Source of the DNA: a virus
Lineage: Duplodnaviria; Caudoviricetes
Virus record (IMG/VR): IMGVR_UViG_3300021387_000147
Direction: 5' to 3' (one strand)
Length of the DNA stretch: 64,000 nucleotides
Shown: piece by piece, positions 3,287 to 43,875 of the stretch
Layout: the number at the start of each line of letters is the position of its first letter
How positions within the stretch are numbered: the stretch's first letter is position 1
The notes under the pieces: generated by a model
What the model saw: only the letters and a program-made list of their open reading frames with translations
What the model was told of the DNA's origin: nothing
Databases searched by the model: none
Position numbers and translations under genes: made by a program

Positions 3287-6238
3287 TTATCCTCTTAGAT
3301 ATTTATATAAATCTTCAGCTAGTTCGTTTGAGAAGCTTTCCGTCTTTTCTTCCGCTTTTGCTGGAACTTTAGATGAAACGTCTTGGCCAATTGCTTTTGT
3401 ATCTCCAGAGTTAGTTTCGGTTCCTTTATCTTGTGTTTCTTCTTGATTAGTTTCTTCTTTCTTTTCTTCATTATTTTGGTTCTTTTGGAATATTCCATAA
3501 ATGACTAATAAAATATAGAATGGATCAGATTTAATTTTTTCATCATTTAATGGTTTTAAGTCATCTGCATTCTTTTGCTTGAATTCTTCACTAGACATTA
3601 AATTCTTATATAATTCATTGACTTTATTTGCCCAATCATTATATTCTTTAATGAAATCATCAACTTTCTTTTCTTTAGCATTATCAACTAATTTTTCGCA
3701 ATTTCCGCAATATTCTGCAACAGTCTTACTAATTTCTTCATAATTAAGACCTTTATTTTCTTCTTCATTTAAGTTAAGAACTATATCTTTAATTTCATCC
3801 ATTAGACTTTCTTTAGTAATAGCTTTAACTTCTTGGCCAAGAGCTTGCATATCTTGAGATACAAACTTCTTAAAGAAGAATACTTTTGGAATAAAATACT
3901 TAAAGATATTTTCAAATTTTTGTGATATTACTTCATAAGCTTTCTTTAACTTATCATTTTGTTCAATAGTCTTAGTAATAGTTGCTATTTGTTCTTGTGA
4001 TGTTTTAATGAAAGCTAAAGCATTTTGTGGTTCTTTAACTTTATCATCTACAGCTTGAATTTCTTTATTAACAGTAACTACTTGTTGTGTTAACTGTTGT
4101 GGAACTTCTTCTGATGCATCTTCTTTCTTTTCATGACCAATTGCTAATAGAACTGGGTCATTTACAATTTCAACTACATTAGAAATCTGTTTTACTGCTC
4201 CACCAAATTCTTGACGTAAATCTTCAATATTACCAATTTCTACGTCAGAGAATTCTGGAATATCAGTTAAATTACTGATTGCATCAAACAATAGCTTAGA
4301 TTTATCAAATAATTCACCAGCAGTAATTGTATTAGTTATCATTTCATCATAACTTAACATTCTTGCATTATTTGATTTTGAATTGAATAAACCTAATAGC
4401 TTAGCAAATGTTTCAGATACAACCTTCTGATTTTTATCAGTTAACTTTTCAGCAACCTTAATCATTCCTTCAGATGCTTTACCAATAGAACCGTCAGAAT
4501 ATCCTTTATCTAATGCACCAAAACCAAAATCAATACCTAAATTGAAATTGAATTTTGTATTTCTCCAATCAATCTTTTCTTCTTTAGGTTTTTCTTGTTT
4601 TTGTTCTTGATTCTTTTCATTATCTTTTTTAGCATCATCTGCAGCATCTTGAACTGCAGCTACAGTTTCTGTATTTGCTTTATCGTCATCTGGACCTTCA
4701 ACAATCATTGGATTGTTATAAACAGGTTTATAACTTGCAGCTTGCTGTGGTACTTCTTCCTGTTTTTCTTCAGTATTTTCTGCAGGTTTTTCTTCATCAA
4801 TTTTCTTTAATTCATCCATTGCAGTCTGATAACCTAACTTAACATTAGCTAGATTATTTTTGGTATTATTCATATAATCTTTTGTAGACTGATTAATACT
4901 GAATTTACCATCTTTTTCAACTACAAGAGGTTTATCCTTTAATTGTAAGAATGCATTAGTGAAATCCTGTTCATACTTAACTAAATCTGATGCGTATGTT
5001 TGGATAATTTCATAAATTTTATCATTCTTTTTCTTTTCACCATCATTACCAATCTGTTGCATATCATTACAGAAATCTTTTTGTTTCTTATTTTCAAGAT
5101 CTGTAATAATATCCTTCTGTGAAGTTCTCTTATCATTTAAGAATTCTTGCCACTTCTTTTCACCATGTTCAATAACCTTAAAGAACTTGATCAATAACTT
5201 AGCAGCGCAGTTAAAGATATTCCATTTCTGCTTATCAATAGCATCAATTGCTTTTGCTAAATCTGGGTGATTCTTAATATAAGTCATTGGACCAAAGTGA
5301 CCTAAACGACCTACACGCTTTTCAACTGTATTTGTGACAGGGTCTGTGAAATTATCTTCAGTATCTTTCTTTTCCTTTTCGATAATTTCCATACGACCTT
5401 TTTCAAAAGATGCTTGTAATGTTTTCTTCTTTGTTTCTACATCTCTCTTGTGTTCTTCAATAAATGGATTCATATATCTGATTTTATCTTCATCTTTCTT
5501 AAATGAATATACATTATTGAAGAATTCTTTAATGGATAGATTATCAATATCAGATGCTTCATTTAAATTAGCAATGAATTCATCTGTTGATTCATTTCTT
5601 TTGTTAATATCTTCTTTAACACCAGCTACAGCATCGATTAACATCTTAGTATCGATTTTTTCTAGCTGATTAAAATAATCTTCTTTTTCAGTCTTAAATG
5701 CATTCTTTAAACCGTATAGAACATCATCTTGAGAGATATTCTTTTTATCACCAAGTTTATAGATTACATCAATAGAATTATATGTTAAGATTTTACCTAA
5801 TCTTTCGTATTCTTGTGAGGCTGTACTAAAATTCCAAGATTTATTATCTTTTACATGCTTTTCAAGTGAATTTTTGTCTAACTTAACTGATTGCTGGAAT
5901 ACTTGTTTAATATCAGAATCAGTATCATCACCAAAAATTAAATCAGCTCTTGGATCTGGAGAACCATTATCTAATGCTACTTTAAATTCTTTCTTCTTAA
6001 ATTCACCTTTATCATCTTTGATATAATATGTAAATTTATCATTATTATAGCTTTTAGCAAAATCTTCAACTGGCACTACATGAGACCAGTTATCTTTATC
6101 AAAAGACTTTATTGCTTTAATAACAGCATCTTTATCTTTGGTTTCACCATTAAACCATTGTCTTACTAATTTTTCTTGGTCTTCAGTTGCTTTTTCATTT
6201 AAATAGTTCTTTACAAAATCTTGATACTTTTGTGACAT
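3287..6238 (-). CDS. Large acidic coiled-coil late protein, probable internal head protein
   Basis: Start MSQKYQDFVKNYLNE after a GAGG RBS; late promoter 6256-6263; several LNE/IVE sites. Confidence 0.65.
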   Translation of the reverse strand: MSQKYQDFVKNYLNEKATEDQEKLVRQWFNGETKDKDAVIKAIKSFDKDNWSHVVPVEDFAKSYNNDKFTYYIKDDKGEFKKKEFKVALDNGSPDPRADLIFGDDTDSDIKQVFQQSVKLDKNSLEKHVKDNKSWNFSTASQEYERLGKILTYNSIDVIYKLGDKKNISQDDVLYGLKNAFKTEKEDYFNQLEKIDTKMLIDAVAGVKEDINKRNESTDEFIANLNEASDIDNLSIKEFFNNVYSFKKDEDKIRYMNPFIEEHKRDVETKKKTLQASFEKGRMEIIEKEKKDTEDNFTDPVTNTVEKRVGRLGHFGPMTYIKNHPDLAKAIDAIDKQKWNIFNCAAKLLIKFFKVIEHGEKKWQEFLNDKRTSQKDIITDLENKKQKDFCNDMQQIGNDGEKKKNDKIYEIIQTYASDLVKYEQDFTNAFLQLKDKPLVVEKDGKFSINQSTKDYMNNTKNNLANVKLGYQTAMDELKKIDEEKPAENTEEKQEEVPQQAASYKPVYNNPMIVEGPDDDKANTETVAAVQDAADDAKKDNEKNQEQKQEKPKEEKIDWRNTKFNFNLGIDFGFGALDKGYSDGSIGKASEGMIKVAEKLTDKNQKVVSETFAKLLGLFNSKSNNARMLSYDEMITNTITAGELFDKSKLLFDAISNLTDIPEFSDVEIGNIEDLRQEFGGAVKQISNVVEIVNDPVLLAIGHEKKEDASEEVPQQLTQQVVTVNKEIQAVDDKVKEPQNALAFIKTSQEQIATITKTIEQNDKLKKAYEVISQKFENIFKYFIPKVFFFKKFVSQDMQALGQEVKAITKESLMDEIKDIVLNLNEEENKGLNYEEISKTVAEYCGNCEKLVDNAKEKKVDDFIKEYNDWANKVNELYKNLMSSEEFKQKNADDLKPLNDEKIKSDPFYILLVIYGIFQKNQNNEEKKEETNQEETQDKGTETNSGDTKAIGQDVSSKVPAKAEEKTESFSNELAEDLYKYLRG

Positions 6239-6255
6239 ATAATTTACCTCTAAGA

Positions 6256-6298
6256 TATTTATACAATAAAAAAAGACTCTCACTTGGAGAGTCTTAAA
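6256..6298 (-). terminator. Intrinsic terminator followed directly by a late promoter
   Basis: Stem AAGACTCT/AGAGTCTT plus T-run on the minus strand, then TATAAATA at 6256-6263. Confidence 0.7.
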
Positions 6299-6317
6299 TC
6301 TTATAGGTTAATTGTTA

Positions 6318-7226
6318 TTACTTTTCCCAAACTGCTAAGCAAGAAGGATCTTGATCATCTACTTCATAGTCAATTTCGTCTAGAGTGTCAAGTGCTTCAC
6401 ATAGGTCAGAGTATACTTCTGAGTCTACAATGTTATCTACACTTTCGTCATAGATGAATGTGACATCTGCTTCAGATTCATCAATTAAAGTCTTCAACTG
6501 TAATTCCTTTACAATATCGAATACTTCATCAATATCTTTCTTTTTCTTCTTGTCCTTCTTCTTGTCTTTCTTTTTACCACCGCAGCAACCTGCACCACAT
6601 TCATTTACCTTAGTAGATTCATCAACGTCGTCATCATCGTCTTCGCCGTCTTCATTATATTCTACTGGTTCAGCATCTTCATCTGAATAGTAAATGTTTG
6701 TTTCTGGTCCCATGATTGATGGGTCTGCGACTTCAAAACCGTCAACTTCTGTTGTAGGAACATCTTCTTCTGTAGCTGGTTCTTCTGCATCTGTTTCAGT
6801 GTCAGAAATTACATTTAAATGAGCACCGCAACATGGGCAAACAGGATCAGCCAAGTCTAATTCATATTCTTCATCAGGATCTGGTTCTGCATCTGGGTCT
6901 GCTTCAGCGTCGTCATCTTCGTCACCTTCAGCATCTTCTGCATCAGCTACCGCATCTTCAGCGTCTGCAACAATATCTTCTTCAGATTCTTCTGGAGCGA
7001 TTACACCTGTTCCACCACAAGTTTCACATTCTTCTCCATCTTCATCTTCGCCGGTACCGTCACAGTCTGGACATTCAATTTCTTCAACTGCTTCTACATC
7101 AGCATCTTCTGCAGTATCGTCAGTTTCAGTTTCATCTTCTTCGACTTTGTCATCATCGTCATCGTCTTCTGAAGCTTCACACAACCATGCTGCTTTCTTA
7201 AAATATAAATCATCGAATTTGTTCAT
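6318..7226 (-). CDS. Highly acidic late protein with a DnaJ-type Zn finger and a CPCCG module
   Basis: CPDCDGTG...CETCGGTG, PVCPCCG, D/E-rich; TATAAATA at 7246-7253. Confidence 0.7.
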   Translation of the reverse strand: MNKFDDLYFKKAAWLCEASEDDDDDDKVEEDETETDDTAEDADVEAVEEIECPDCDGTGEDEDGEECETCGGTGVIAPEESEEDIVADAEDAVADAEDAEGDEDDDAEADPDAEPDPDEEYELDLADPVCPCCGAHLNVISDTETDAEEPATEEDVPTTEVDGFEVADPSIMGPETNIYYSDEDAEPVEYNEDGEDDDDDVDESTKVNECGAGCCGGKKKDKKKDKKKKKDIDEVFDIVKELQLKTLIDESEADVTFIYDESVDNIVDSEVYSDLCEALDTLDEIDYEVDDQDPSCLAVWEK

Positions 7227-17149: not shown

Positions 17150-17656
17150 TTATTTATATAGCTCTTTTATTTGGTCTTTAGTCAAAATTCTTTGATTACT
17201 TGAACCTCTAAATTTAAGAGTTAAATCTTTCTTTGCTTCTATAAATGGACCATCTACTAAGACATCTACATTTTCTATAATTGCATTTGTAACTCCTTGA
17301 ATATATTTTCTTTGACCATATTTTAAATCTTTATCTAGAATATATCCAGTATACATCCAAAGAGTTTTATCAGGACAATTTAGTTTGAATTTCTTAATAA
17401 AAGAAAGTAAAGCTAATTGATTTTCTTGTTCAAATGGGTCTCCACCTAAAATAGTCAATCCTGAAATATAAGACTTTTTACATTGTTCTATTATTTCAAA
17501 TTCTTCTATTGGAGTAAAAGGTTTACCATATTCAAAATCCCATGTTTGTTCTGAAAAGCAACCTTTACAATGATTTCTACATCCACTAACAAATAAACTA
17601 ACTCTGACACCATCACCATCAGCTGTGTCAATCATCTTTATATTACCAAAGTTCAT
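17150..17656 (-). CDS. nrdG: Anaerobic ribonucleotide reductase activating enzyme
   Basis: DGDGVRVSLFVSGCRNHCKGCF, LGGDP, VDVLVDGPF, FRGSSNQR. Confidence 0.95.
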   Translation of the reverse strand: MNFGNIKMIDTADGDGVRVSLFVSGCRNHCKGCFSEQTWDFEYGKPFTPIEEFEIIEQCKKSYISGLTILGGDPFEQENQLALLSFIKKFKLNCPDKTLWMYTGYILDKDLKYGQRKYIQGVTNAIIENVDVLVDGPFIEAKKDLTLKFRGSSNQRILTKDQIKELYK

Positions 17657-19763: not shown

Positions 19764-20561
19764 TTAGTCACCACTCCAGTTTCCATTTGGATGGTCTTTA
19801 TAATATCTTCTTTGGTCTTCAGCAACAGAATCAAAGTAATCACTACCACGTTTCATTTCTTTTCTAACATATTCTTCATTATCATTCAACCACTGTTCTA
19901 TTTTATTTAAATTATCAGCAGTTAAATCATACTGACCTCTTGTCCAGGTATTACGAGTTGCTGTTAAACCATCAATATCTGATAAATTTATGAAAGCACA
20001 CAAACCAGACCATTTATAGAATGTACCATTTATCCAGTCAACATTTAATGTAATTGCTCTTTCAAATCTAGGGAATACAATTTCGTGGTCGCTAACTTTG
20101 CCATTTCTTTCTTCTAATTTAGCATTGGTTTCATTTTTAACAAGGTCTTTGTTGTATTTTTCAACTTCATCGCTTTTACTACGATAAATGTCTCGTACAC
20201 TTTCACCAGTATCAGCATCTATATTTGCTTTTTTCAAAAAGTAATTAATCATACCTTTGCAATTATTTAATTCATGTGTTATATTCCAAAAATCAGACAT
20301 ATAATTAGCAAGTTCAGAAACATCCATATCTACATATTTTTGCCACTTTGGATAATAAGATTTGAAAGTAGCAATAGCATTTCTTAAATGTTTCCAGTTA
20401 GTATCTTTTGTACCTTTTGGAAAATCATTAGCAGTAAAATTTTTACCATTTATAGTAAGAACTGCACTATTATGAGGTCCTTTATAATTTAAATCTATAT
20501 CAATTTTTTCACATATATAGCCATGTTCTTTTAATTCCAATATTGCTTCATTTAAATTCAT
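19764..20561 (-). CDS. Late protein with N-terminal MNLNEAILELKEHGY motif
   Basis: TATAAATA at 20577-20584; AGGAG RBS. Confidence 0.7.
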   Translation of the reverse strand: MNLNEAILELKEHGYICEKIDIDLNYKGPHNSAVLTINGKNFTANDFPKGTKDTNWKHLRNAIATFKSYYPKWQKYVDMDVSELANYMSDFWNITHELNNCKGMINYFLKKANIDADTGESVRDIYRSKSDEVEKYNKDLVKNETNAKLEERNGKVSDHEIVFPRFERAITLNVDWINGTFYKWSGLCAFINLSDIDGLTATRNTWTRGQYDLTADNLNKIEQWLNDNEEYVRKEMKRGSDYFDSVAEDQRRYYKDHPNGNWSGD

Positions 20562-20637: not shown

Positions 20638-23600
20638 TTATTTATCATTTGGTCTCTTATATCCAAATATCTTCATAGTATCATCTTTCTTAACTGTTCT
20701 ATCACCCTTCTTTTGTTCCTTATAGTCACATCTATGTTTTGCTATAGATTTAGACCAAAGTTTAGTGATATATGCACCTGTTCCTAATGCATGACCATTC
20801 TTTGCTTTTACATTTCCATCTTTATCTGATAGCCAATCTATTACCATCTGGACGGTTCCAGCAGAAGTAGTCTTAGCTTCATCATTCAATGTAAATTCAA
20901 TATTGAAGTCATTTACATAGTTTGCATTGTTTGTATATACCCACAAATGTAAGTTATAAGTGACATCATATAAAGGAATATTCAATCCATTCTTCTTATA
21001 ATCTTCCTTGAATTCATCAGTACAATGTTCTGCTACATAAGTTTCTACTGGAATTCCCTTAGTTGAAGCACCTACAATATTTCCTTTATCATCTACAGGA
21101 ATCATTCCATTCTTAACAATATCATCAAGAGTTGCTAATGAACCTGTTGGAGATACTGATGGCAATACAATATCAACCTTAAAGCCTACACCAATTACTT
21201 CTGGAAGACTATCATTCTTTGGATCTACAAATTTAACATCATAAGGTTTCTTATCATTATATTTGTGACCTTCTGAATAATACTCATCTACCTTATCTTT
21301 GTCTACTTTTGTGACAGGATGGACTAGAGTAATATCAATATCTTTTGCTTCTTTCATTATAACAGTTATTGTATCTTCAGCAACGTTTCCAGCCTTATCT
21401 ACATAACGTCTAATGATATGATTTACTCCCTTTTCCAATCTCTGTAGTGTCAAAGTGTCTTGAACTTCTCCATTTACAGTCCACTTAACTGGAATAGCAT
21501 TTGTATTAAATGATTCCATTGGAGTTGGATTTAAGATTTCAACCTTAGGTGGAATGTTATCAAAGATTATTTCTACCTTTGCGCTTGCTTTATTGCCATA
21601 ATCATCTGTATATTCATAAGCAATTGTATAAGCAATATTTCCTTCTTTATTCTTAACAATCTTCTTATTATCATCTACAGAATATGTGACCTTTGTGCAA
21701 GAGTCAATCATATAAGATACTTCATAATCACCAATCTTCTGACCAGTTAGATTATCAGTCTTATAAGATACTACTACATCTTTTCCATTTACTTTCTTTG
21801 TATATGTGACTGTCTGAACAGTGTCAACTGGTTTTCCAGTCTTTGTATCAATTACTTGTTTTAATTCAACTTCAACACCATCTACTTTAATTATTTCAAC
21901 TAATTCAGCCAAGTTATTTCCAATTGGAACTACTTTTGCCTTAGTTTCATCAATTATGTAGTTGTATTCAGTTAACTTAATATCCTTTGTAGAAACTGTA
22001 TCTAGAGTGACATCTATATTGAAATGCTTTTCTGTCTTATGAATTGTATCTTTTACAGTGACAGTAATTTCATTATTTTTCTTATTAACATAGATTTTAT
22101 CATCTTTTTCTTCTTCAATAGTAATATAGTCAATCAATGCATCAGTTGACTTAGCATTAGTCAAAGTGACAACTGGAGGTGCATCATTGAATAGAATTAC
22201 TACAGAATCACATACAGTCTTCTTTTCATTACATACCTTAATTATAGTATCTTTCTTAACAACTACATCCAAAGTATCATAATCACATTTAATACCTTCA
22301 CATAATTTCCATTCAATATTATGGTTAGGATCATTTGTCTTAATTGTATCTTTCTTTGGTTCATTGTCAATTGCAGTAATCTTTACATCTTCTTTTTCAT
22401 CGATTATATTGATTACGATAGTTGCAGTATCAGTATTTCCATTACCATCAGTGACAATAACTTTTACAGTATCTTTTGTTTTCTTTTCATAATCAATAGG
22501 ATTCTTGATTACTAATGTATCATCCTTAAATTCATAATTAGGGTTATCAATTACAATATAAGTTATGCTATCCTTATCCTCATCTGTTGCTGGGATTTGA
22601 CATACATTACCTACATAGTTTTCTTTAATTGTACAAGTCTTATCATCAACATGGACTGGTTCATTTACATTAGTAATTGTAATTACATATTTTAATGTAT
22701 CTTTATTATCAGCTTTATCTTTAACAACTACTGTAATTGTGACAGTTGGAGTTGTTTCATGATCAAATGGTTTTGTTGTTGTCAACTTACCAGTACTATC
22801 AATCTTAAATCCAGGTTCTTTTACACTATAGGATAATGTATCATTTTTATCTGGATCAATTGCTGTAATAATACCTATAAAACAAGTATCACAATTTTCT
22901 GGAACTTTTAATGTATCATTTGGTTGTAATACTGGAGGTTCATTAACATCTTTAATGTTTATAATTACTTTAGCGCTATCTTTATCTCCATTCTTTGTAT
23001 TAACATAGACAGTAATTGTATCTGCTTCCTTAGTTTCAAAATCAAATGGATTTACCAAGGTAAGTTTACCAGTGCTATCGATGTTATAATTAATAGAATC
23101 AGAGAGAGTAAATTTAATAGTGTCTCTAGGTCCATCTTCATCCCATGCTGTTATTGTTCCTAATACTCCTGTTGTATCTTCATTGATTGAGAATATTGTA
23201 TCTCTAACATGAACTGGTTCGTTTTCGTCGTTAATCTTTACAGACACATTCATAGTATCTTTTAATGTTCCATCAGAAACAACTACCTTGAATGTAAATT
23301 CTGTTTCCTTTTCATAGTCAAATGTTCTTGTAGATGTAATAACTCCATTGTTATCAATTTTAAATGGAACATTACCAACAATTGTATATGTTAACTTATC
23401 ACCATCTTGGTCAGTTGCTTTTACACTGTCCTTAAATGGCTTATTTTCATCAACATAGAATGTAGTATCATTCTTATCAAACTTAGGACTATCATTTGAA
23501 TTTGTAATGTTAACTGTGACGATAGCACTATCCTTCAAAGTTGGGTCATTCTTATCTTGAACTAATACTTTTAATGTATAAGTCTTCTGGTCTGCTTCAT

Positions 23601-25425
23601 AATCAAATGTTTTCTTAGCCCATAGTTCACCATCTGCATCTAATCTGAAGATGCTGGTGTCGCCTTCTAGAAGACTGAAGACGTTCTGAGTGAATTCAGA
23701 CTTAATATCAACATCAATAGCTATCAAAGTATCAATGCTCTTTGTTATAACATTATTTTCTTTTAGATCAATAGATACATCATTTATTGTAGGAGCTTCA
23801 TTAACGTCAATTACAGAAATTGGTAGATTTCTAGTAATAGAAACATTACCAGTATCTTTCAATGTGACCTTAATTACATCAGTGATTGCTTTTTCATAAT
23901 TCAAAGTATCACCAAACAAAGTCAATACACCAGTCAAACTATCTAATGTATATCTGTCAGTATATGCTGAATCCAAATAGAATCTTGTTGTTTCTGTCTT
24001 ATGTAGAACTTTAATTGAATCTACAAATCCTCTCTTATTTTCTTCAAACTTATAAGTATGAGTTGTATCGAATTCTACATTATTTTTTACATCAGCATCA
24101 ATAATTTTAATTGGTAATTCACCACTTGTTTCACCACCAGGCAAGACAGCACCACTAATACTATCAATCTTCATTACAAGAATATCATTTGTTTCTGTCA
24201 AATCATCTACTTTAACATTTATTTTAATAGTATCTAATGGAGACTTCTGACCAATAGGAATCTTTGTTGTGACTGTTGAATCACCACAAATTGGTAAATA
24301 AGGAGGCATATTGAAGTCTTCTAATGTGACTCCATCTTTAAATTCAAAGCAATATGTGAAGTATACATCAATAGTTGCTGTGTCTGATAGTTTAATTGGA
24401 ATAATAACAGTAGAGTCATTTTCCTTTAGACCACCTTGTTTATTCAATTCAGGGAAATCAAGTGTATCTGGGTCAAACTTAACGAAACGGAAATTTTCGC
24501 CTTTGAAATCGTCACCAATTTCAAGTTTGTTAGCAAGCATCTGTCCAGCAAAATCAAGATTACATTTCAAATACATTTTAGCTGTAGTAATGAATGAACC
24601 CTGAATAGGAACATTGTCAGTATTGTCAAATATAATGTCTTTGTTAGAATAAATTAAAACATTACCACGGTATTTACTTTGTGGCAAAACAGAATCACCA
24701 AGTATTACACTAATAGTAGTATGGTTACCGATAAACAAAGAATCAACGAAAATTCTTGTTAGTCGGTTCTGGGTCATGTGAATATAAATCTTACAACCAG
24801 TCTTACCATCTACGCAAGTCCAAATGTTCTTGAAATACAAGTCATATTGACCTTCTCCTTCGGGAACTTCAATAGTATCAGCTTGGTAATTATCGGTTAA
24901 AATAATGTCTTGTTGATAACCATCGGAAGGCCAAGTAATAGTAGGCATAGATAAATTAACTGGTGCTGGTGGAACACTATCACAAGACAATTTACCTTCA
25001 CCACGGGAAATACCTGTAGTTGTTGGAGCAACTGGAGTTTCTGTCAAACATATATTACCAGCAAAAATAGCCTGTTCGTTATCATTACCAGTAGTTAATG
25101 ACTTAGCACGAATAGGGCCAGTTGTGAATTGACATTGGTCACCAAGTGTAATAGTGCTATCTGTCAATACAGGACCACCTAAACTAATTCCTTCAGCAGA
25201 AGAAATTGGTCCTGACGAACCATTCCAACCTGACTTATCAGGAATGATTACACGGCGACCCATTTTAATATAGTCTGTACCATATAGCTTATACTGAAGC
25301 ATATAGTCATATTGGTCCTGTTGTAATGCAGAATCATTTGGTATATTTGAGAAATTGAATGGTCTATAATCTGCTGTGAAAGCAAATGCAACCAATAATA
25401 ATATAATTCCAATTATCTTTTTCAT
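20638..25425 (-). CDS. Secreted cadherin-repeat protein with Fibrobacter-type C-terminal domain
   Basis: Signal peptide; repeated DVNEAP, FDYE, ATDxDGD cadherin motifs; C-terminal ALGTGAYITKL...KIFGYKRP. Confidence 0.85.
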   Translation of the reverse strand: MKKIIGIILLLVAFAFTADYRPFNFSNIPNDSALQQDQYDYMLQYKLYGTDYIKMGRRVIIPDKSGWNGSSGPISSAEGISLGGPVLTDSTITLGDQCQFTTGPIRAKSLTTGNDNEQAIFAGNICLTETPVAPTTTGISRGEGKLSCDSVPPAPVNLSMPTITWPSDGYQQDIILTDNYQADTIEVPEGEGQYDLYFKNIWTCVDGKTGCKIYIHMTQNRLTRIFVDSLFIGNHTTISVILGDSVLPQSKYRGNVLIYSNKDIIFDNTDNVPIQGSFITTAKMYLKCNLDFAGQMLANKLEIGDDFKGENFRFVKFDPDTLDFPELNKQGGLKENDSTVIIPIKLSDTATIDVYFTYCFEFKDGVTLEDFNMPPYLPICGDSTVTTKIPIGQKSPLDTIKINVKVDDLTETNDILVMKIDSISGAVLPGGETSGELPIKIIDADVKNNVEFDTTHTYKFEENKRGFVDSIKVLHKTETTRFYLDSAYTDRYTLDSLTGVLTLFGDTLNYEKAITDVIKVTLKDTGNVSITRNLPISVIDVNEAPTINDVSIDLKENNVITKSIDTLIAIDVDIKSEFTQNVFSLLEGDTSIFRLDADGELWAKKTFDYEADQKTYTLKVLVQDKNDPTLKDSAIVTVNITNSNDSPKFDKNDTTFYVDENKPFKDSVKATDQDGDKLTYTIVGNVPFKIDNNGVITSTRTFDYEKETEFTFKVVVSDGTLKDTMNVSVKINDENEPVHVRDTIFSINEDTTGVLGTITAWDEDGPRDTIKFTLSDSINYNIDSTGKLTLVNPFDFETKEADTITVYVNTKNGDKDSAKVIINIKDVNEPPVLQPNDTLKVPENCDTCFIGIITAIDPDKNDTLSYSVKEPGFKIDSTGKLTTTKPFDHETTPTVTITVVVKDKADNKDTLKYVITITNVNEPVHVDDKTCTIKENYVGNVCQIPATDEDKDSITYIVIDNPNYEFKDDTLVIKNPIDYEKKTKDTVKVIVTDGNGNTDTATIVINIIDEKEDVKITAIDNEPKKDTIKTNDPNHNIEWKLCEGIKCDYDTLDVVVKKDTIIKVCNEKKTVCDSVVILFNDAPPVVTLTNAKSTDALIDYITIEEEKDDKIYVNKKNNEITVTVKDTIHKTEKHFNIDVTLDTVSTKDIKLTEYNYIIDETKAKVVPIGNNLAELVEIIKVDGVEVELKQVIDTKTGKPVDTVQTVTYTKKVNGKDVVVSYKTDNLTGQKIGDYEVSYMIDSCTKVTYSVDDNKKIVKNKEGNIAYTIAYEYTDDYGNKASAKVEIIFDNIPPKVEILNPTPMESFNTNAIPVKWTVNGEVQDTLTLQRLEKGVNHIIRRYVDKAGNVAEDTITVIMKEAKDIDITLVHPVTKVDKDKVDEYYSEGHKYNDKKPYDVKFVDPKNDSLPEVIGVGFKVDIVLPSVSPTGSLATLDDIVKNGMIPVDDKGNIVGASTKGIPVETYVAEHCTDEFKEDYKKNGLNIPLYDVTYNLHLWVYTNNANYVNDFNIEFTLNDEAKTTSAGTVQMVIDWLSDKDGNVKAKNGHALGTGAYITKLWSKSIAKHRCDYKEQKKGDRTVKKDDTMKIFGYKRPNDK

Positions 25426-25440
25426 TTTTAATTACCTTCC

Positions 25441-25641
25441 TTATACAATTCCTTTCTTCTTGCAGAAGTTTATCAATGCTCTAACAATAAAAATGCCGAT
25501 AAAGTCTACTATTATGAAGAATGTGTTGAACTCCACGAAGAATAACGGCAATCCTAGTAATGCACCTATAGCTGTAAGTATCGCACAAACCAACAATAAG
25601 TACATAAAAACATTTAGTGTTTTAAGTATTAATTCTTCCAT
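25441..25641 (-). CDS. Small two-TM membrane protein
   Basis: Two hydrophobic helices; promoter TTTACA-N17-TATATT at about 25670-25698. Confidence 0.6.
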   Translation of the reverse strand: MEELILKTLNVFMYLLLVCAILTAIGALLGLPLFFVEFNTFFIIVDFIGIFIVRALINFCKKKGIV

Positions 25642-25745
25642 TTTATCTTCCTATATATTTATTCATCAAAATATACCTATTTATTACATGCTTGTAAATA
25701 CCTGCATTAAAAAAAGAGCCAAATTACTTTGACTCTTTATTATCA

Positions 25746-26252
25746 TTATCCACATGAATCGGGAAGAGGTCCGCCACAGCCTGGAGAACCGCATCCAGTA
25801 TACCTATAATAAGTTCGCCCACATCCACCTCCAATTTCAATCCAACCTGGATTTAGTGAACTACCACATCCACCATATCCTCCACATGCAACAATATTTG
25901 GCATATACATGTATGGACTTGCCCACATATTACCACAGCCACCACAACCATGAGGCCATCCACTATTTCCACAACCGCCACATGCTACTATTGTATAAGA
26001 ATTTGTTGCAGAAATTCCACCGCCACTATGGCTACGTTTTCTCTTTTGTTCATAAGGCCATAGAGGTGGAACAGGAGGTTCCTTAGGTTTCTTTATTTTC
26101 TGATAAACATATCGTAATGCATCTGGAAGAGCCTTTCCTGTATTTGGACCAGATTGAGAATAACCTTGTCCACATCCTCCACCGCAAGCAGTTATACGTA
26201 AAGGTCTAAATCCTTTCGCATAAAAATGATTTTGCATTTCAATTAACTTCAT
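25746..26252 (-). CDS. Cys/Gly-repeat protein (CGGCG/GCG), candidate radical SAM substrate
   Basis: ACGGGCG, ACGGCG, GCGGCG, ACGGYGGCG, GGGCG, GCGSPGCGG, terminal SCG; ATGA overlap with the rSAM gene. Confidence 0.7.
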   Translation of the reverse strand: MKLIEMQNHFYAKGFRPLRITACGGGCGQGYSQSGPNTGKALPDALRYVYQKIKKPKEPPVPPLWPYEQKRKRSHSGGGISATNSYTIVACGGCGNSGWPHGCGGCGNMWASPYMYMPNIVACGGYGGCGSSLNPGWIEIGGGCGRTYYRYTGCGSPGCGGPLPDSCG

Positions 26253-27178
26253 AATATACCGTCTTCACCATTTTTCTTTAATAGCCAATCAATATAGACA
26301 GGATCTTTTTCATATTCTGTCACATCGTCATCCAATGTAAAATTACCAAAGACCCATCTTTCAAAATCAGTATTTGTCACAAAATCCCAATCATCATAGA
26401 TTTGTCCATCAATTGTTATTAAAATATCATTCACAAATATCTTATTACCATAGATTACCTTAGAATGTTCCATTCCTCTATGATAACTAATCAACATCTT
26501 ATCATCCCAAAATCTGTCATCATTACAGACCATGCATCCACCAGACATTTCATATTCATATTCGTTAATCAACTTTTCAAATACGTCATCTCTGTTCTTC
26601 AAATTATTTTTGTTAATCTGTCTATAATCTGCTCTGATACAAATAGAAACATTCTCTAAACCTCTATAAGGTTCTATAAAAGTCTTAAATTCATTTATAT
26701 CAAATGTTTGTGATAAAACGACATTCAATTTAATATGTTTCTTAATTAGATGAGCAAACATATCAATTGGTAGAACATCTTCATAGAACTGCTGATGCAT
26801 GTGTCTAGATACATTCAAACCTCCAATCTTTTCATTTTTGTTAATGAATTCAATCATTGGCTTGACTTTATCTAATTGCACAGTACCAGGATGGTCAGTA
26901 AATGTTGGGAATGTAGTATTGATATAAACAGGCTTTTCCATAGCATCAATTAGTCTTTGACACTTTTCTAGGTCGGCTAATGGTTCTCCACCTGTCAATA
27001 CATATTCTTGAATTAAAGGATTTTCGTTAATCTTTTTAATTTGTGCAATAATTGCATCCATATCACATGTTCTCTGCTTATACATTTGTTTGGATGTGCA
27101 GAATTTACAGTGATTATTGCAATCCCATGGCACAAAGATAGTGCAACTTAAATTACTTCTTCCTTTAATATATCTCAT
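26249..27178 (-). CDS. Radical SAM enzyme
   Basis: CNNHCKFC, LTGGEP; extra CMVC near the C-terminus; start MRYIKG after the promoter. Confidence 0.9.
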   Translation of the reverse strand: MRYIKGRSNLSCTIFVPWDCNNHCKFCTSKQMYKQRTCDMDAIIAQIKKINENPLIQEYVLTGGEPLADLEKCQRLIDAMEKPVYINTTFPTFTDHPGTVQLDKVKPMIEFINKNEKIGGLNVSRHMHQQFYEDVLPIDMFAHLIKKHIKLNVVLSQTFDINEFKTFIEPYRGLENVSICIRADYRQINKNNLKNRDDVFEKLINEYEYEMSGGCMVCNDDRFWDDKMLISYHRGMEHSKVIYGNKIFVNDILITIDGQIYDDWDFVTNTDFERWVFGNFTLDDDVTEYEKDPVYIDWLLKKNGEDGIL

Positions 27179-27198
27179 ATAATTCCTTTGTTTATCTA

Positions 27199-27257: not shown

Positions 27258-29408
27258 TTATAAATGTTTGACTCTATCATGAATATCGCCCATTCTACCT
27301 TGTGCCATATAATTTGCATTTCCAAGATAACCACAAACTCTACGAACAACATTCATTTTAGCCAAATCTGTATTTCCACATTGTTTACACTTCCAAATAA
27401 ACTTACCATCTTCATTTCTAATCATTTCAATGGTACCTGTAGAACCACAACAATGACACCAATCCAATTCTGTATTAATTTCACAATACATAATGTTATC
27501 ATAAATGTATTTGATTACAGACAAGATAGCTTCAACGTTGTTTTCCATATTTGGAGTTTCAATATAAGAAATAGCTCCACCTGGTGACAATTTCTGTAAT
27601 TCTGCTTCAATATCAATCTTCTTAAATGCATCAATCTTTTCAAAGACAGGAACGTGATATGAATTAGTGATATAGTTTCTATCAGTAATTCCTGGAATTG
27701 TACCAAATCTACGTTGCAATGCCTTAGCAAACTTTTCAGTAGTATTTTCAATTGGAGTTCCATATACAGAATAGTCAATCTTTTCTACTTGCTTCCAATC
27801 ACGGCATTTATCATTTAATGCTTGCATGATCTTCTTACCTAGAACCATTCCATCTTCATCTGTTAAAGACTTACCAATCAAGACTTTAACAGTTTCATAT
27901 AGACCAGAATATCCTAGTGAAATAGTTGAATATCCATTATATAGTAGCTTATCAATTGTTTCACCTTTACCTAATCTTGCGAAAGCACCGTTCTGCCATA
28001 GAATTGGAGCTACATCTGATTTAACACCTCTTAAATGTTCATGACGTAATCTTAATGCTCTATGACATAATTCCAATCTCTGTTCTAGAATATACCAGAA
28101 TTTTTCTAGGTCACCCTTTGCAGATAAAGCAACATCTGGCAAATTGATAGTGACAACACCCTGATTGAAACGACCATAGTACTTAGGTTTCTTTGTCTTT
28201 GGATCTCTATATGGAGTCAAGAATGAACGGCAACCCATACATGGATAGCAATCACCTGGTTCACCTTTCTTACTAATCTTCAATTGTTTCATGACTTTTT
28301 CTGAAATATAGTCAGGAACCATTCGCTTAGTAGTACATTCTGCAGCCAATTTAGTCAAATACCAATATTTACTATCTGGTGTGATATTATCTTCTTCCAA
28401 AACATATAATAGTTTAGGGAATGGATTTGCATAATACTGGCCATTTTCATTCTTAACACCTTTCATTCTTTGTTTTAAGATTTCTTCAATGACTAATGCT
28501 AAGTTTTCCTTTTCTTGTTCATTTTCTGCTTCATTCAAATACAAACAAACAGAAACGAATGGAGTCTGACCATTTGTAGTCTGTAATGTTAGAATTTGAT
28601 ATTGTAGAGTTTGTACACCATCTCTAATATCTTTTCTTACTAAATCTTCAATTTGTGCATCATTTAATGTTGGGAATTCTGATTTAAAGTAATCTCTTGC
28701 AACATTAATGAACTTAGACAAATGAGATGCAGTAATAGTTTGTCCACCATATTGAGAAGATGCAACTTGAGCAACAATCTGAGAAGCAATATTACAAGCA
28801 TTTCTAAATGTATGTGGCTTATCAATCTGTGTTCCTGAGATAATAGTACCATTTTGTAGCATATCATCCAAGTTAATTAAACAACAGTTGTGGATAGGCA
28901 TTGCAAAGTAGTCCATATCATGGAAGTGTATAATACCTTCTTTATGAGCATGGAATATATCACTTGGAATTAAATATCTTTGTGAAATATCCTTACTTAC
29001 TTCACCTGCCATATAGTCACGCATTGTAGAAACTATATTAGGATTCTTGTTAGCATTTTCTTGTTGAATATCTTCGTTATTACCGCTGAGTAATGACATT
29101 ATTCTATCATCAATCGTATTTTTACGTTCTGATAGAGCTTTTTGGTATGTGTATACCATGTATTCATCTGACACATCATATTTTCCAGCTTTATTTATGG
29201 CATCTTTTACCATATTTTGAATATCTTTATATCCAATTGAAACTGGAGAAGCTTTACATTTTTGTTCTATATCTTTAGCAATATCTTTTATTTCTTGTAT
29301 TGTTAATCTATCTTCGATTCTTACCTTTTCATTTGCTTTTGAAATAGATTCAATAATGTTATTCTTATTAAATGTGACTTCAGAACCATTACGCTTTCTA
29401 ATTATCAT
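27258..29408 (-). CDS. nrdD: Anaerobic ribonucleoside-triphosphate reductase with ATP cone
   Basis: IRKRNG ATP cone, HNCCL, CMGCRSFL, GRFNQGVVTINLP, RRVCGYLG glycyl radical loop. Confidence 0.97.
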   Translation of the reverse strand: MIIRKRNGSEVTFNKNNIIESISKANEKVRIEDRLTIQEIKDIAKDIEQKCKASPVSIGYKDIQNMVKDAINKAGKYDVSDEYMVYTYQKALSERKNTIDDRIMSLLSGNNEDIQQENANKNPNIVSTMRDYMAGEVSKDISQRYLIPSDIFHAHKEGIIHFHDMDYFAMPIHNCCLINLDDMLQNGTIISGTQIDKPHTFRNACNIASQIVAQVASSQYGGQTITASHLSKFINVARDYFKSEFPTLNDAQIEDLVRKDIRDGVQTLQYQILTLQTTNGQTPFVSVCLYLNEAENEQEKENLALVIEEILKQRMKGVKNENGQYYANPFPKLLYVLEEDNITPDSKYWYLTKLAAECTTKRMVPDYISEKVMKQLKISKKGEPGDCYPCMGCRSFLTPYRDPKTKKPKYYGRFNQGVVTINLPDVALSAKGDLEKFWYILEQRLELCHRALRLRHEHLRGVKSDVAPILWQNGAFARLGKGETIDKLLYNGYSTISLGYSGLYETVKVLIGKSLTDEDGMVLGKKIMQALNDKCRDWKQVEKIDYSVYGTPIENTTEKFAKALQRRFGTIPGITDRNYITNSYHVPVFEKIDAFKKIDIEAELQKLSPGGAISYIETPNMENNVEAILSVIKYIYDNIMYCEINTELDWCHCCGSTGTIEMIRNEDGKFIWKCKQCGNTDLAKMNVVRRVCGYLGNANYMAQGRMGDIHDRVKHL

Positions 29409-29565: not shown

Positions 29566-29958
29566 TTAGAAACGTTGTTTCTTGAAATGATCAATCATTA
29601 ACTTAGTGAAGTCATCCTGATTTGGACGTTTACGTGTCTTTACATATTCTTCTGCTGCCTTAATTAGAGTCTGACGAACATCTTCAGCACTCATGCAACG
29701 CTTACATGCCTGTAGACAGTCATAAACCAAATCTTCCTTAACAACAGCACGAATGAACTTTGTGACCTTTCTAAAGTCTGTTGCAAATCCATCGTCATCC
29801 CAAGAAGCTTCTGTACCATCGTCTTCTACTTCTTCTGGATATTTTGCTGCGCCTGATGCAACCAATTTGTCTTCGATTTCTGGAGTATAAGTCCATTCTT
29901 CTTTCATCAACTTATATCCTGCATCTCTCATTACTTTCTTTGCTTCTAATAAATTCAT
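29566..29958 (-). CDS. Late protein with MNLLEAKKVMRDAGY N-terminus
   Basis: TATAAATA at 29999-30006; AGGAG RBS; flanked by terminators. Confidence 0.7.
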   Translation of the reverse strand: MNLLEAKKVMRDAGYKLMKEEWTYTPEIEDKLVASGAAKYPEEVEDDGTEASWDDDGFATDFRKVTKFIRAVVKEDLVYDCLQACKRCMSAEDVRQTLIKAAEEYVKTRKRPNQDDFTKLMIDHFKKQRF

Positions 29959-42089: not shown

Positions 42090-42891
42090 CTAAATCTAAT
42101 TCCTCATAATCTGCAGAACTATAAGTCTTATTCAATGAACTATTACCAATCTTCTTACAGTATTGTTCCCATTTACAGAAATTGCCTACTGGAGTAATAA
42201 TAATATCGGTAGCATCGTAGCCTGTATAATTACCGAAAACACCAAATTGATGGCTATTTCCTTTTTCGTCTTTCCATATATAGTCATAAAAATTACAATT
42301 GTCATCCTTAACTTTTGAAGTTCCCATCTTTTCCTGGAAATCAAAATCAGAATATCTACCCATAAGGTCTTCACAGACAACTACATAGAAATTATCAGTC
42401 AAACATGCTTTTAACAATTCAACCAATTTGTCACCTGTAGATTCATTACATTTAGGAATATTCAATCTTGTATTAGGAATATACTTTTTACATAGAAGAG
42501 CTTGATCACGTCTTCTTGCATACTGTTCAATAGAAGATACAGAAATAGCAACTTCAGTTAAACCAGCCTCAGCGTAAGATTTAATACGTTCTTCATCTAA
42601 GAGAATTCCATTAGTGACAAGACAAACATCTTCAGATACATGTGCTTTAACAGCTCTAATAATATCAGGAAGGTCTTTTCTAATAGTTGATTCTCCACCC
42701 ATGATAGTTGCACGTTTAAGAATACCAACTTTATCCATAGTTGATATTGCTTTCTGCATATCTAATTGAAGAGGATCTTTTAAAGGTTGATAACAAAAAT
42801 AACAGTTTCCATGAGGTCCAGTGGATTCATTCATGTTGCAGTTAAGATTTGTTATCACTCTATATCTAAATATTGATTTTTTAACACCCAT
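42049..42891 (-). CDS. Radical SAM enzyme with atypical CX11CX2C motif
   Basis: TNLNCNMNESTGPHGNCYFC, MGGESTIRKDL, LVTNG. Confidence 0.8.
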   Translation of the reverse strand: MGVKKSIFRYRVITNLNCNMNESTGPHGNCYFCYQPLKDPLQLDMQKAISTMDKVGILKRATIMGGESTIRKDLPDIIRAVKAHVSEDVCLVTNGILLDEERIKSYAEAGLTEVAISVSSIEQYARRRDQALLCKKYIPNTRLNIPKCNESTGDKLVELLKACLTDNFYVVVCEDLMGRYSDFDFQEKMGTSKVKDDNCNFYDYIWKDEKGNSHQFGVFGNYTGYDATDIIITPVGNFCKWEQYCKKIGNSSLNKTYSSADYEELDLDALKDFIDSKPIH

Positions 42892-43682
42892 TAGACTAAG
42901 TTAATTCCTTCAATGATTCCATCACCAAGATTATTGGCATCAGAGGTTTCATTCTTATTAATTGGAGACAATTTAATAAAGAAGTGGTCTTTATCAAAAT
43001 ACTTTTCTAATAGAGCTAAATCAAAATCATCTTCATTTACAAGAGTCATATTGATAGTAGTCTTCAAATTAGATTTTGTTCTAATTGCACCTAATTCCTC
43101 AAGAGTCATCTTATTCTTATATGGAATTAACCAATTTCTATGGTCTTCATCAAAAGAATGCAAAGAAATCTGTAATGTAGTATTACCTTCAATCCAAGAG
43201 AAATCTGTTCCCTTAATACCAATTGTAGATACGTAAATATGAACATTTGGATATTTGTCTCTTAAGATTTTTGCCGCTTTCTGAACATTATCCCAATTCA
43301 AAGCAGGTTCACCCATTCTAGTCATATTGACCTTAAATTCTTTACACTTATTTGTGTCAATTTCTGGATGAAGATTACGAATCCAATCTACTTGTTCAAC
43401 CATTTCTTCTGCAGTCAAATTACGATATTTTGCTTTCATTTGACCAGTTGCACAGAACTTACAATGAACTGGACAACCACTCATACAAGAAATACCAATC
43501 ATCCAACGTTCAGTTCTATCACCTAATTCATAATTATTAAGCTTATTTTGTTTCTTACCAATAGCATCCTTTGTATAGAATGGAAGGAATGTATCAGTAC
43601 TTTCAATTAGTTTACCGTCTGGAAGTGCAAAACAATATACACTACCATTTGCAAAGTGTCTTGCTTTCTTTTCTGTTAACAT
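42891..43682 (-). CDS. RlmN/Cfr-like radical SAM core lacking the C-terminal AACGQL segment
   Basis: LIEST, SGCPVHCKFCATG, RNLTAEEMVEQV, MGEP, VSTIG, QISLHS, IKLSPIN. Confidence 0.85.
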   Translation of the reverse strand: MLTEKKARHFANGSVYCFALPDGKLIESTDTFLPFYTKDAIGKKQNKLNNYELGDRTERWMIGISCMSGCPVHCKFCATGQMKAKYRNLTAEEMVEQVDWIRNLHPEIDTNKCKEFKVNMTRMGEPALNWDNVQKAAKILRDKYPNVHIYVSTIGIKGTDFSWIEGNTTLQISLHSFDEDHRNWLIPYKNKMTLEELGAIRTKSNLKTTINMTLVNEDDFDLALLEKYFDKDHFFIKLSPINKNETSDANNLGDGIIEGINLV

Positions 43683-43694
43683 ATATCAAATCCT

Positions 43695-43725
43695 AAAACA
43701 ATGGAGAGGTTATCTCCATTGTTTT
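43695..43725 (-). terminator. Perfect 13-bp hairpin between the peptide and rSAM genes (attenuator or stabiliser)
   Basis: AAAACAATGGAGA-N5-TCTCCATTGTTTT. Confidence 0.7.
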
Positions 43726-43740
43726 TATTTAAGTTTTTAT

Positions 43741-43875
43741 TTATTCTTCATCCTGAACTTCAAGGATTGTTGCTAGCTGTCCACATGCGGCCTGAGCTTT
43801 ACGTTCTGCTTCAGTTGCAATAGCGACTGCGTAATCATATCCTGCTTGTTCTAACTGTTCCTTAATCTTATTCAT
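43741..43875 (-). CDS. 44-aa peptide carrying the RlmN catalytic motif AACGQL (not in ORF track)
   Basis: MNKIKEQLEQAGYDYAVAIATEAERKAQAACGQLATILEVQDEE; AAGGAG RBS. Confidence 0.85.
   Translation of the reverse strand: MNKIKEQLEQAGYDYAVAIATEAERKAQAACGQLATILEVQDEE

Follow-up and report, generated by a model that had tools for sequence, protein, structure and literature searches.

A rumen phage radical SAM enzyme coupled to a Cys-Gly arm

Radical SAM (rSAM) enzymes coupled to Cys-rich peptides are a main source of new peptide chemistry. The described thioether-forming maturases, such as CteB, SkfB and PapB, act on Cys-rich peptides and depend on SPASM or twitch auxiliary clusters and on leader-binding domains, and an rSAM enzyme is known to install thioether links on a Cys-rich protein (CrpC/CrpA; PMC13692751). 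Other described enzymes offer different parallels. MoaA, the GTP 3',8-cyclase of the twitch family, has a disordered C-terminal tail with an essential GG motif that is thought to insert into the active site and that can be supplied in trans as an 11-residue peptide (PMC9026282). The peptide epimerase YydG/EpeE is a small rSAM enzyme that abstracts a C-alpha hydrogen and uses a Cys as hydrogen donor, and in RlmN and Cfr a Cys on a flexible segment takes part in rSAM catalysis. In borosins, which use ordinary SAM-dependent N-methyltransferases rather than radical enzymes, the modified stretch is the enzyme's own C-terminus in some lineages and a separate gene in others. Here we describe a phage rSAM enzyme linked to a Cys-Gly-rich polypeptide and compare it with each of these systems.

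We analyzed a 64,000-nucleotide stretch of rumen phage DNA (the window), in which a reading made from the sequence alone had picked out an rSAM gene followed by a gene for a protein with repeated Cys-Gly cassettes. That observation is confirmed. The rSAM gene runs from 26249 to 27178 on the minus strand (ATG at 27178, 309 aa) and overlaps by ATGA, at 26249-26252, a gene for a 168-aa protein at 25746-26252 on the same strand. The small protein has 12 Cys, all followed by Gly, and 35 Gly; the chance of 12/12 given its own Gly content is about 7e-9. It has 25 homologues of 93-172 aa with in-frame indels and dN/dS of 0.12-0.43, showing that the gene is real and under purifying selection. It comprises a conserved N-terminal helix, an indel-rich middle and a conserved Cys-Gly-rich C-terminal part of about 55 aa that is conserved beyond its Cys, and no fold is confidently predicted for it (AF2 pLDDT 31.6).

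The sequence-only reading also described the pair as a self-contained unit with its own promoter and a terminator near 25708-25738. We found the sigma-70-like match (TTGACG, 17 nt, TATATT) at 27228-27200 and a terminator-like hairpin plus T-run at 25738-25713, after the Cys-Gly gene, both on the minus strand. These are consensus matches only: 12 promoter-like sites were found against 12.4 expected in shuffles. Of terminator-like sites, 3 were found against 0.6 expected. The -35 hexamer sits inside a terminator-like hairpin plus T-run (27238-27213, minus strand) that ends the gene directly upstream, NrdD, which had gone unnoticed. The N-terminus of the Cys-Gly protein had been likened to a late-protein GY motif, and the motif does recur, with four minus-strand ORFs of the window starting M-x-L-x-E ... 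G-[YF]. A speculative capsid-targeting reading of this motif was considered because L-x-E resembles T4 prohead-protease sites, but was not adopted.

To place the enzyme, we combined profile searches, alignment and structure prediction. It belongs to the rSAM superfamily: Pfam PF04055 (Radical_SAM) scores 32.4 bits against a cut-off of 29.5, Fer4_12 scores 29.6 bits, and the GGE-type SAM-binding motif G63-G64-E65-P66 and the cluster motif C20-x3-C24-x2-C27 (codons at 27098-27121, minus strand) are invariant in the phage clade, the cluster motif in 35/35 phage-clade and 73/73 bacterial-clade sequences. The AF2 model (pLDDT 91.7) has a predicted MoaA/twitch-like fold, in which the C-terminal domain is a beta-sheet plus two helices. 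The best structural matches are MoaA (Foldseek E = 3.4e-7; Z 14.8 over 239 residues), GDGT-MAS, ChlB, SuiB and SkfB, with ChlB, SuiB, SkfB and CteB at Z 12.6-14.2. After the barrel only two Cys are conserved, in C215-x-V-C218 (codons at 26525-26536, minus strand), which lies on the turn of a beta-hairpin in the model and is invariant in the phage clade. The core of the family that we propose is about 265 aa, with invariant C215-x2-C218, H233-R-G and D263-W264, accompanied by a Cys-Gly-rich arm in cis or adjacent in trans. In all, 207 clusters at 50% identity were found at E<=1e-30, largely from big phages of animal guts.

Adjacency to NrdD raised the question of whether the enzyme is its activase, with the Cys-Gly protein as an unrelated neighbor. 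This is effectively refuted. NrdG2 is the best NCBIfam match, but it covers only the cluster-binding N-terminus and scores 31.1 bits against a cut-off of 131 (TIGR02495), and TIGR02491 scores 20.9 bits against 126. A canonical NrdG (TIGR02491, 170 bits against a cut-off of 126) lies at 17150-17656, and relatives also keep it as a separate gene. Furthermore, adjacency to NrdD is confined to this lineage, whereas the Cys-Gly coupling is family-wide.

We next asked whether rSAM homologues lack a Cys/Gly-rich neighbor, the outcome that the sequence-only reading had proposed would refute a functional pair. They do not: 25 of 27 assessable phage-clade lineages have or probably have such a partner. 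Among 28 lineages defined at 60% identity, 11 have a separate Cys-Gly-rich ORF within 700 nt, 12 have a tail fused to the C-terminus of the enzyme, 2 probably have a partner, 2 have none and 1 is undeterminable. The partners share no detectable sequence similarity apart from the motif. ORFs with at least 4 CG dipeptides number 30/1650 near the rSAM gene against 7/6043 elsewhere in the same loci (Fisher p = 1.5e-14). Of 142 full-length family representatives, 89 (63%) carry a fused Cys-Gly tail on a disordered linker (median about 30 residues). Of these 89 tails, 70 end exactly in Cys, and the last two Cys are most often 4-5 residues apart, as in a terminal C-x4-C-COOH unit. Separate and fused forms are intermixed on the tree, with at least 3 changes forced by well-supported branches and 5 by parsimony. 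Fusion and fission thus happened several times, and the functional link is about as firm as comparative genomics can make it.

The Cys in these arms occur in a small-residue context. Of 149 Cys in 25 non-redundant arms, 117 are followed by Gly and 15 are the last residue; position -1 is Gly in 52% and Ser in 15%, and Tyr is the commonest residue at -3. The Cys mostly occur in close pairs, but their spacing is irregular, with a peak at 4-5 and a range of 0-100. Arms carry 2-12 motifs, some contain internal tandem repeat units (L015, L025; L numbers are our labels for loci), some are attached to extra domains, and some loci encode two different Cys-Gly proteins, L011 having a 66-aa and a 203-aa one. 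Pfam, NCBIfam and PHROG searches gave no match for the window's Cys-Gly protein, and nothing for nine partners or fused forms or for the extra domains of the longer partners. Searches of deposited phage genomes gave no nucleotide or protein match for the region or for the Cys-Gly protein and only three weak matches for the rSAM enzyme, and an Atlas look-up of the enzyme returned only its own family.

The link with an rSAM enzyme and the several target motifs per polypeptide recall the thioether-forming maturases, and CteB and SkfB are among the better structural matches (Z 12.6-13.5). However, membership in the sactipeptide/ranthipeptide maturases is not supported. A Pfam scan shows no SPASM domain, there is no full twitch Cys set, and the cluster motif starts at residue 20, leaving no room for an N-terminal RRE. 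PapB, SkfB, geopeptide and similar models score 12.7-14.9 bits against cut-offs of 300-400. Some partners have no leader at all and begin with M-C-G, and the arm is fused to the enzyme in most lineages. CXXX-repeat systems pair a SPASM maturase of the TIGR04115 family with a target carrying Cys at every fourth residue, a different register from that of the arms, and the pair here lies in an auxiliary metabolic region, not in a tail-fibre module. TIGR04115 was not among 25 of the 27 matches of the window enzyme and scored 17.5 against a cut-off of 350 for a relative.

MoaA resembles the enzyme in predicted fold and in its Gly-containing tail, but TIGR02666 scores 21.2 bits against a cut-off of 284, and there is no molybdenum-cofactor gene context. 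The three-Cys auxiliary site is not kept, and any correspondence between C-x2-C-x14-H and the MoaA Cys motif is tentative, with no residue-level alignment behind it. The tail here is Cys-rich, repeated and far longer. YydG/EpeE is the best sequence match among solved structures (E = 3e-6 over about 150 residues), but the match covers only the N-terminal half, TIGR04078 scores 18.6 bits against a cut-off of 300, and the substrates are unrelated. Borosins share the alternation between fused and separate forms, without sequence or fold relation. RlmN is a weaker structural match (Z 11.0) and has a single catalytic Cys rather than a repeat array. The same phage encodes a split RlmN-like rSAM enzyme (42891-43875) whose catalytic Cys, in an A-A-C-G-Q context, lies on a separate 44-aa peptide that starts with the same N-terminal motif as the Cys-Gly protein. 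We found no description of this family, or of a Cys-Gly arm on an rSAM enzyme, in a literature search that missed most subscription journals.

To examine whether the arm is an obligate feature of the enzyme, we turned to a bacterial sister clade, about 31% identical and mostly from Oscillospiraceae, which is present in several hundred gut Bacillota species and usually lies next to a DUF5662 gene. It has no Cys-Gly tail or neighbor, yet keeps 32 of the 40 residues that are invariant in the phage clade, including those of the C-terminal domain, and nearly the whole pocket. C215 is kept, but C218 is Arg in 73/73. This suggests a shared primary substrate that is not the arm. DUF5662 is absent from the window and from the flanks of the phage-clade loci; it appeared in no paper found by literature search, had no usable match among solved structures and gave no Atlas lead, but the work provides a function-linked handle on this bacterial family. 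In addition, a complete 348-kb phage (the record holding L022) has the enzyme but no Cys-Gly-rich gene by pattern search. No protease, exporter or other conserved neighbor apart from the arm was found, so a classical secreted RiPP is not supported and a released product is hard to picture.

Together, these results partly support the earlier interpretation, which inferred a multi-core precursor or a modified virion protein by analogy with sactipeptide and ranthipeptide maturation: the functional pairing holds, membership in those maturases and secretion do not find support, and a virion role remains speculative. We favor a self-contained two-part system in which the enzyme would cleave SAM at a single canonical [4Fe-4S] site and direct radical chemistry at Cys in small-residue contexts ([G/S]-C-G, or a C-terminal Cys) on a disordered arm, supplied in this phage by a separate, translationally coupled protein and in most relatives by the enzyme's own tail. 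In this view the arm is chemically altered, as a substrate or sacrificial co-substrate acting in cis or in trans, a reading to which we give a probability of about 0.45. The most likely reaction would be hydrogen abstraction at or next to the Cys-Gly unit, giving intramolecular thioether-type cross-links, plausibly between the paired Cys of the terminal C-x4-C-COOH unit or onto a neighboring C-alpha or C-beta. The analysis itself establishes the evolutionary coupling of enzyme and arm, the repeated fusions and fissions, the motif statistics, the fold class of the enzyme and the lack of a confidently predicted fold for the arm; that the arm binds and enters the active site, that it is modified, what the product is and what it does for the phage are inferences. 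The multiple motifs, tandem repeats, extra domains and paired genes of the arms are substrate-like features, and peptide- and protein-modifying enzymes are among the closest relatives. Complex prediction gave weak support only: the score was 0.48 against a best of 0.00 for 3 controls, with runs agreeing in at least 53% of contacts and partner pLDDT of 36-38. That mark was reached by 58 of 80 solved complexes and 2 of 110 mismatched pairs, but at 0.60 or under by only 7 of those 80 and by both mismatches that passed.

The absence of a SPASM or auxiliary-cluster Cys set of the kind thioether-forming rSAM enzymes use counts against the favored reading. The bacterial clade, the armless phage and the dominance of fusion (enzyme-substrate fusion is rare among known peptide-modifying systems) give real weight to a possible, somewhat less favored alternative, in which the arm serves catalysis without being consumed and the real substrate, shared with the tail-less clade, is possibly a nucleotide. 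The arm could be a dithiol/disulfide or hydrogen-atom shuttle that re-reduces C215/C218, like the C-terminal Cys pair of class I ribonucleotide reductase or the C-terminal redox motif of large thioredoxin reductases, or a Gly-rich lid that plugs the active site, as in MoaA. The tails that end in Cys, the lack of any conserved neighbor other than the arm, the MoaA precedent, the Cys-bearing peptide of the split RlmN-like enzyme and the often nucleotide-related neighboring genes (NrdD here; nicotinamidase-like, Nudix and PRPP-synthetase-like genes elsewhere) are consistent with this. However, a shuttle or lid needs one Cys pair, whereas separate partners carry up to 12 motifs, with the repeats, extra domains and two genes per locus noted above; the window's partner conserves many non-Cys residues; a lid does not explain the Tyr enrichment; and no candidate small-molecule substrate is identified. 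It is unlikely that the Cys-Gly stretch instead ligates an auxiliary cluster, or stores or delivers Fe-S or metal, in place of the Cys-rich SPASM/twitch extension. The family keeps only C215 (plus C218 in phages) of a twitch-like hairpin, the Cys in the arm are mostly paired, and the enzyme's structural relatives all carry auxiliary clusters. Against this, Cys number and spacing are highly variable although cluster ligands are normally fixed in register, the arm hangs on long disordered linkers or lies on unrelated separate proteins without a confidently predicted fold, and the bacterial clade works without it.

About as likely as not, these are a previously unrecognized class of single-cluster rSAM enzymes, mostly from large gut and rumen phages, that carry or separately encode a disordered Cys-Gly swinging arm ending in C-x4-C-COOH and use it in a new way. 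The arm may be a built-in thiol or radical relay that makes the enzyme independent of host reductants while it modifies a nucleotide-like substrate, or a self-modified tail with a new Cys-Gly cross-link chemistry made without a SPASM domain. Either outcome would be new: the former as a design known from ribonucleotide reductase and thioredoxin reductase but, to our knowledge, not from rSAM enzymes, and the latter as a SPASM-independent Cys modification made by phages.

Contigs from sheep-gut metatranscriptome libraries bridge the rSAM/Cys-Gly junction in three runs, although contigs from RNA libraries can contain DNA, so this does not show transcription. An unrelated 41-aa peptide with a C-G-C-G tail is encoded in the L034 genome, on another contig.

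To establish the genomic setting of the gene pair, we first examined the gene content of the window, a low-GC (about 31%), almost single-stranded-coding stretch of a large phage that carries an ATP-dependent DNA ligase, an RNA ligase, a Nudix/cytidyltransferase and NrdD/NrdG. Near-identical DNA occurs in sheep and bovine gut metagenomes, and relatives of the finding lie on IMG/VR viral contigs of up to 415 kb. A 309-aa radical SAM (rSAM) gene lies at 26249-27178 on the minus strand; its ATG at 27178 is preceded by AAAGGA, and its cluster motif is C20-x3-C24-x2-C27. Its stop codon overlaps, as ATGA, the start of a 168-aa gene at 25746-26252, the product of which has 35 Gly and 12 Cys, every one followed by Gly; the chance of this given the protein's own composition is about 7e-9. 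The two-gene unit described in a sequence-only reading of this DNA is thus present as described. A TTGACG-N17-TATATT match precedes the pair and terminator-like hairpins flank it, although the promoter match is no more than the background of the region and its -35 hexamer lies inside the terminator of the upstream gene. Downstream of the pair, both on the minus strand, lie a 66-aa hydrophobic ORF (25441-25641) and a 1595-aa protein with an apparent N-terminal signal sequence (20638-25425). At locus L001, in a 150-kb relative, a 1331-aa Cadherin-domain (Pfam PF00028) protein occupies the same position, but this neighbor is not conserved in other lineages.

Several lines of evidence show that the small gene is real. 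It has 25 homologues of 93-172 aa, which share a conserved N-terminal helix, a conserved Cys-Gly-rich C-terminal part of about 55 residues and an in-frame, indel-rich middle. Its dN/dS is 0.12-0.43, whereas that of the adjacent rSAM gene, which is 96-97% identical between the same phages, is about 0.09-0.10. Synonymous divergence of the small gene (0.33-0.47) is two to four times that of the overlapping rSAM gene (0.11-0.18), so that the partner is the fast-changing half of the pair. In addition, its middle part gains and loses whole Cys-Gly units (102, 119 or 168 aa), which suggests recombination or diversifying turnover confined to the partner. AlphaFold gives the small protein no fold (mean pLDDT 31.6).

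The gene directly upstream (27258-29408), which the sequence-only reading did not mention, is the anaerobic ribonucleotide reductase NrdD (835 bits). Given this position, we asked whether the rSAM enzyme could be the NrdD activase. Its best NCBIfam match is NrdG2, but at 31 bits against a cut-off of 131 and over the cluster-binding N-terminus only. By contrast, a canonical NrdG (170 bits against a cut-off of 126) lies at 17150-17656 and is also present as a separate gene in relatives, and outside this lineage the rSAM gene is not next to NrdD at all. We therefore reject the activase reading. At L001 (958-5073), only a 294-aa C-terminal piece of NrdD is called, and it is followed by a DUF7487 gene and a 591-aa GH10 glycoside hydrolase gene before the rSAM gene. 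Similarly, RNA-library contigs from three sheep-gut runs diverge from the window exactly at 27180, just upstream of the rSAM start. The pair therefore keeps its left boundary while its upstream neighbor changes.

Because a lack of Cys/Gly-rich neighbors among rSAM homologues would have argued against a functional pair, we collected 191 loci around such homologues from viral, genome and metagenome collections and from exact-protein look-ups. The family splits into two clades, each with full support. In the phage clade (at least about 33% identical to the window enzyme), the rSAM gene is followed, less often preceded and in a few cases faced convergently by an ORF rich in Cys-Gly. These partners share no detectable sequence similarity between lineages and range from 39-aa peptides that begin directly with M-C-G, through proteins with internal tandem repeat units, to proteins of 200-220 aa in which the Cys-Gly stretch is attached to another domain. 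In two of the longer partners (L011:5168-5779 and L019:4804-5466, both minus strand; 203 and 220 aa), an N-terminal helix and a Cys-Gly stretch are followed by an acidic run and a C-terminal domain of about 100 aa with no family match; locus L011 thus has two different Cys-Gly proteins flanking one rSAM gene. At 60% identity there are 28 phage-clade lineages, of which 11 have a separate partner, 12 have a Cys-Gly tail fused to the enzyme's own C-terminus, two probably have a partner, two are without and one cannot be judged. ORFs with four or more CG dipeptides number 30 of 1650 within 700 nt of the rSAM gene against 7 of 6043 elsewhere in the same loci (p = 1.5e-14).

To extend this comparison to the whole family, we performed an exhaustive profile search, which found 207 clusters at 50% identity with E<=1e-30. 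Of 142 full-length representatives, 89 (63%) carry a fused tail. Fused and separate forms are intermixed on the tree, where well-supported branches force at least three changes and parsimony gives five, and the window's own well-supported seven-member clade holds four separate and three fused forms. Repeated fusion and fission of two parts is strong evidence that they act together.

We next examined the motif itself. In 25 non-redundant arms, 117 of 149 Cys are followed by Gly and 15 more are the last residue of the protein; the residue before Cys is Gly (52%) or Ser (15%), and Tyr is the commonest residue three positions before. In the 89 fused tails, a disordered linker (median about 30 residues) precedes 2-11 Cys, 70 tails end exactly in Cys and the last two Cys are most often four or five residues apart. 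The minimal conserved unit is therefore a terminal C-x4-C-COOH flanked by small residues.

The AlphaFold model of the enzyme is confident (pLDDT 91.7) and shows a partial barrel followed by a three-hairpin beta-sheet and two helices. The best structural matches are MoaA (Z 14.8), GDGT-MAS, ChlB, SuiB, SkfB, viperin, CteB, anSME, PqqE and EpeE, whereas the activase PflA-AE and QueE score lower, at about Z 11. The best sequence match among solved structures is the peptide epimerase YydG/EpeE (E = 3e-6), followed by MoaA. The predicted fold therefore belongs with the SPASM/twitch group, but the Cys set of that group is missing: after the barrel only C215-x2-C218 is invariant, on a hairpin turn. 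With the cluster motif starting at residue 20 there is no room for an N-terminal recognition domain, and no curated family cut-off is approached. At locus L023, in a 411-kb phage contig, a second rSAM gene (5500-6423) follows the Cys-Gly peptide; its N-terminus is MoaA/viperin-like (55 bits to Pfam Radical_SAM; 60 bits to archaeal moaA, below cut-off).

The second clade consists of bacterial enzymes about 31% identical to that of the window, which were hit in 488 species' genomes, mostly Oscillospiraceae, and which have no Cys-Gly tail or neighbor. In 39 of 73 loci (within L038-L111; for example L038:205-756 and L038:817-1737) they are preceded by a DUF5662 gene with conserved His and Cys residues; neither protein has a described function. 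These enzymes keep 32 of the 40 residues that are invariant in the phage clade, including C215, H233, D251 and D263-W264 of the C-terminal domain, but C218 is Arg in all 73. This implies that a C-x2-C-ligated auxiliary cluster cannot be a family feature. Furthermore, the catalytic pocket looks the same with and without the arm, which hints at a shared primary substrate. One complete 348-kb phage also carries the enzyme but no Cys-Gly-rich gene detectable by pattern. A 41-aa hydrophobic peptide ending in a C-G-C-G run (L199:1494-1619, minus strand) occurs in the MAG that also holds locus L034, but it lies on another contig and was probably found only because the pattern search matches it. No other gene is conserved next to the phage-clade enzymes, and we found neither a protease nor an exporter.

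These results show that the enzyme and the Cys-Gly arm are coupled, whereas the role of the arm, including whether the enzyme acts on it, is inferred. Our preferred reading, to which we give a probability of only about 0.45, is that the arm is what the enzyme acts on, in cis or in trans. This is supported by the many motifs per partner, the internal repeats of some partners, the presence of two partner genes at some loci, the extra domains carried by some arms, the conservation of non-Cys residues in the window's partner and the relationship of the enzyme to peptide-modifying rSAM enzymes; the CrpC/CrpA system is a published precedent for thioether links on a Cys-rich protein (PMC13692751). 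A complex prediction gave weak support only: against 0.00 for the best of three controls, the score was 0.48; that mark was reached by 58 of 80 solved complexes and 2 of 110 mismatched pairs, but at 0.60 or under by only 7 of those 80 and by both mismatches that passed; the runs agree in at least 53% of contacts and partner pLDDT is 36-38.

Somewhat less likely, but still a serious possibility, is that the arm is a recyclable thiol arm or active-site lid for a reaction on another substrate. The fused state dominates, the pocket is shared with a tail-less clade, a complete phage lacks the arm and nucleotide-metabolism genes are frequent neighbors. The terminal Cys pair also recalls the C-terminal redox tails of ribonucleotide reductase and large thioredoxin reductases. 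In addition, MoaA, the top structural match, has a disordered C-terminal Gly-Gly tail that is essential, is thought to insert into the active site and can be replaced by a peptide in trans (PMC9026282), and this same phage splits an RlmN-like rSAM so that its catalytic Cys, in an A-A-C-G-Q context, lies on a separate 44-aa peptide. We consider a metal- or cluster-binding role unlikely, and the activase reading very unlikely.

With reference to the maturases of sacti-/ranthipeptides, the sequence-only reading had proposed a multi-core precursor or a modified virion protein, and this interpretation is only partly supported: the pairing of enzyme and Cys-Gly protein holds, but the features that define those maturases are lacking. 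The system would work like an rSAM plus Cys-rich-target system, yet it fails the defining tests of the sactipeptide/ranthipeptide, CXXX-repeat, YydG, MoaA and NrdG families. Its mix of fused and split forms resembles the borosins, which use a different enzyme class. Literature searches, which did not cover most subscription journals, found no description of this family. An rSAM enzyme coupled to a Cys-rich polypeptide is in itself a known arrangement, of which this family is a variant, and the chances that the chemistry or the role of the arm is new in itself are about even.

The N-terminus of the Cys-Gly protein carries a short motif (M-N/K-L-x-E-A ... G-Y/F) that also begins three otherwise unrelated ORFs of the window, so that it heads four minus-strand ORFs in total (19764-20561, 25746-26252, 29566-29958 and 43741-43875). 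It may represent a docking helix, a HicA-like start or a capsid-targeting sequence. Two of the four are Cys-bearing partners of rSAM enzymes, namely the Cys-Gly protein and the 44-aa peptide of the split RlmN-like enzyme, and the motif also heads Cys-Gly partners in other lineages (L011:5168-5779, minus strand, and L012:4927-5127).
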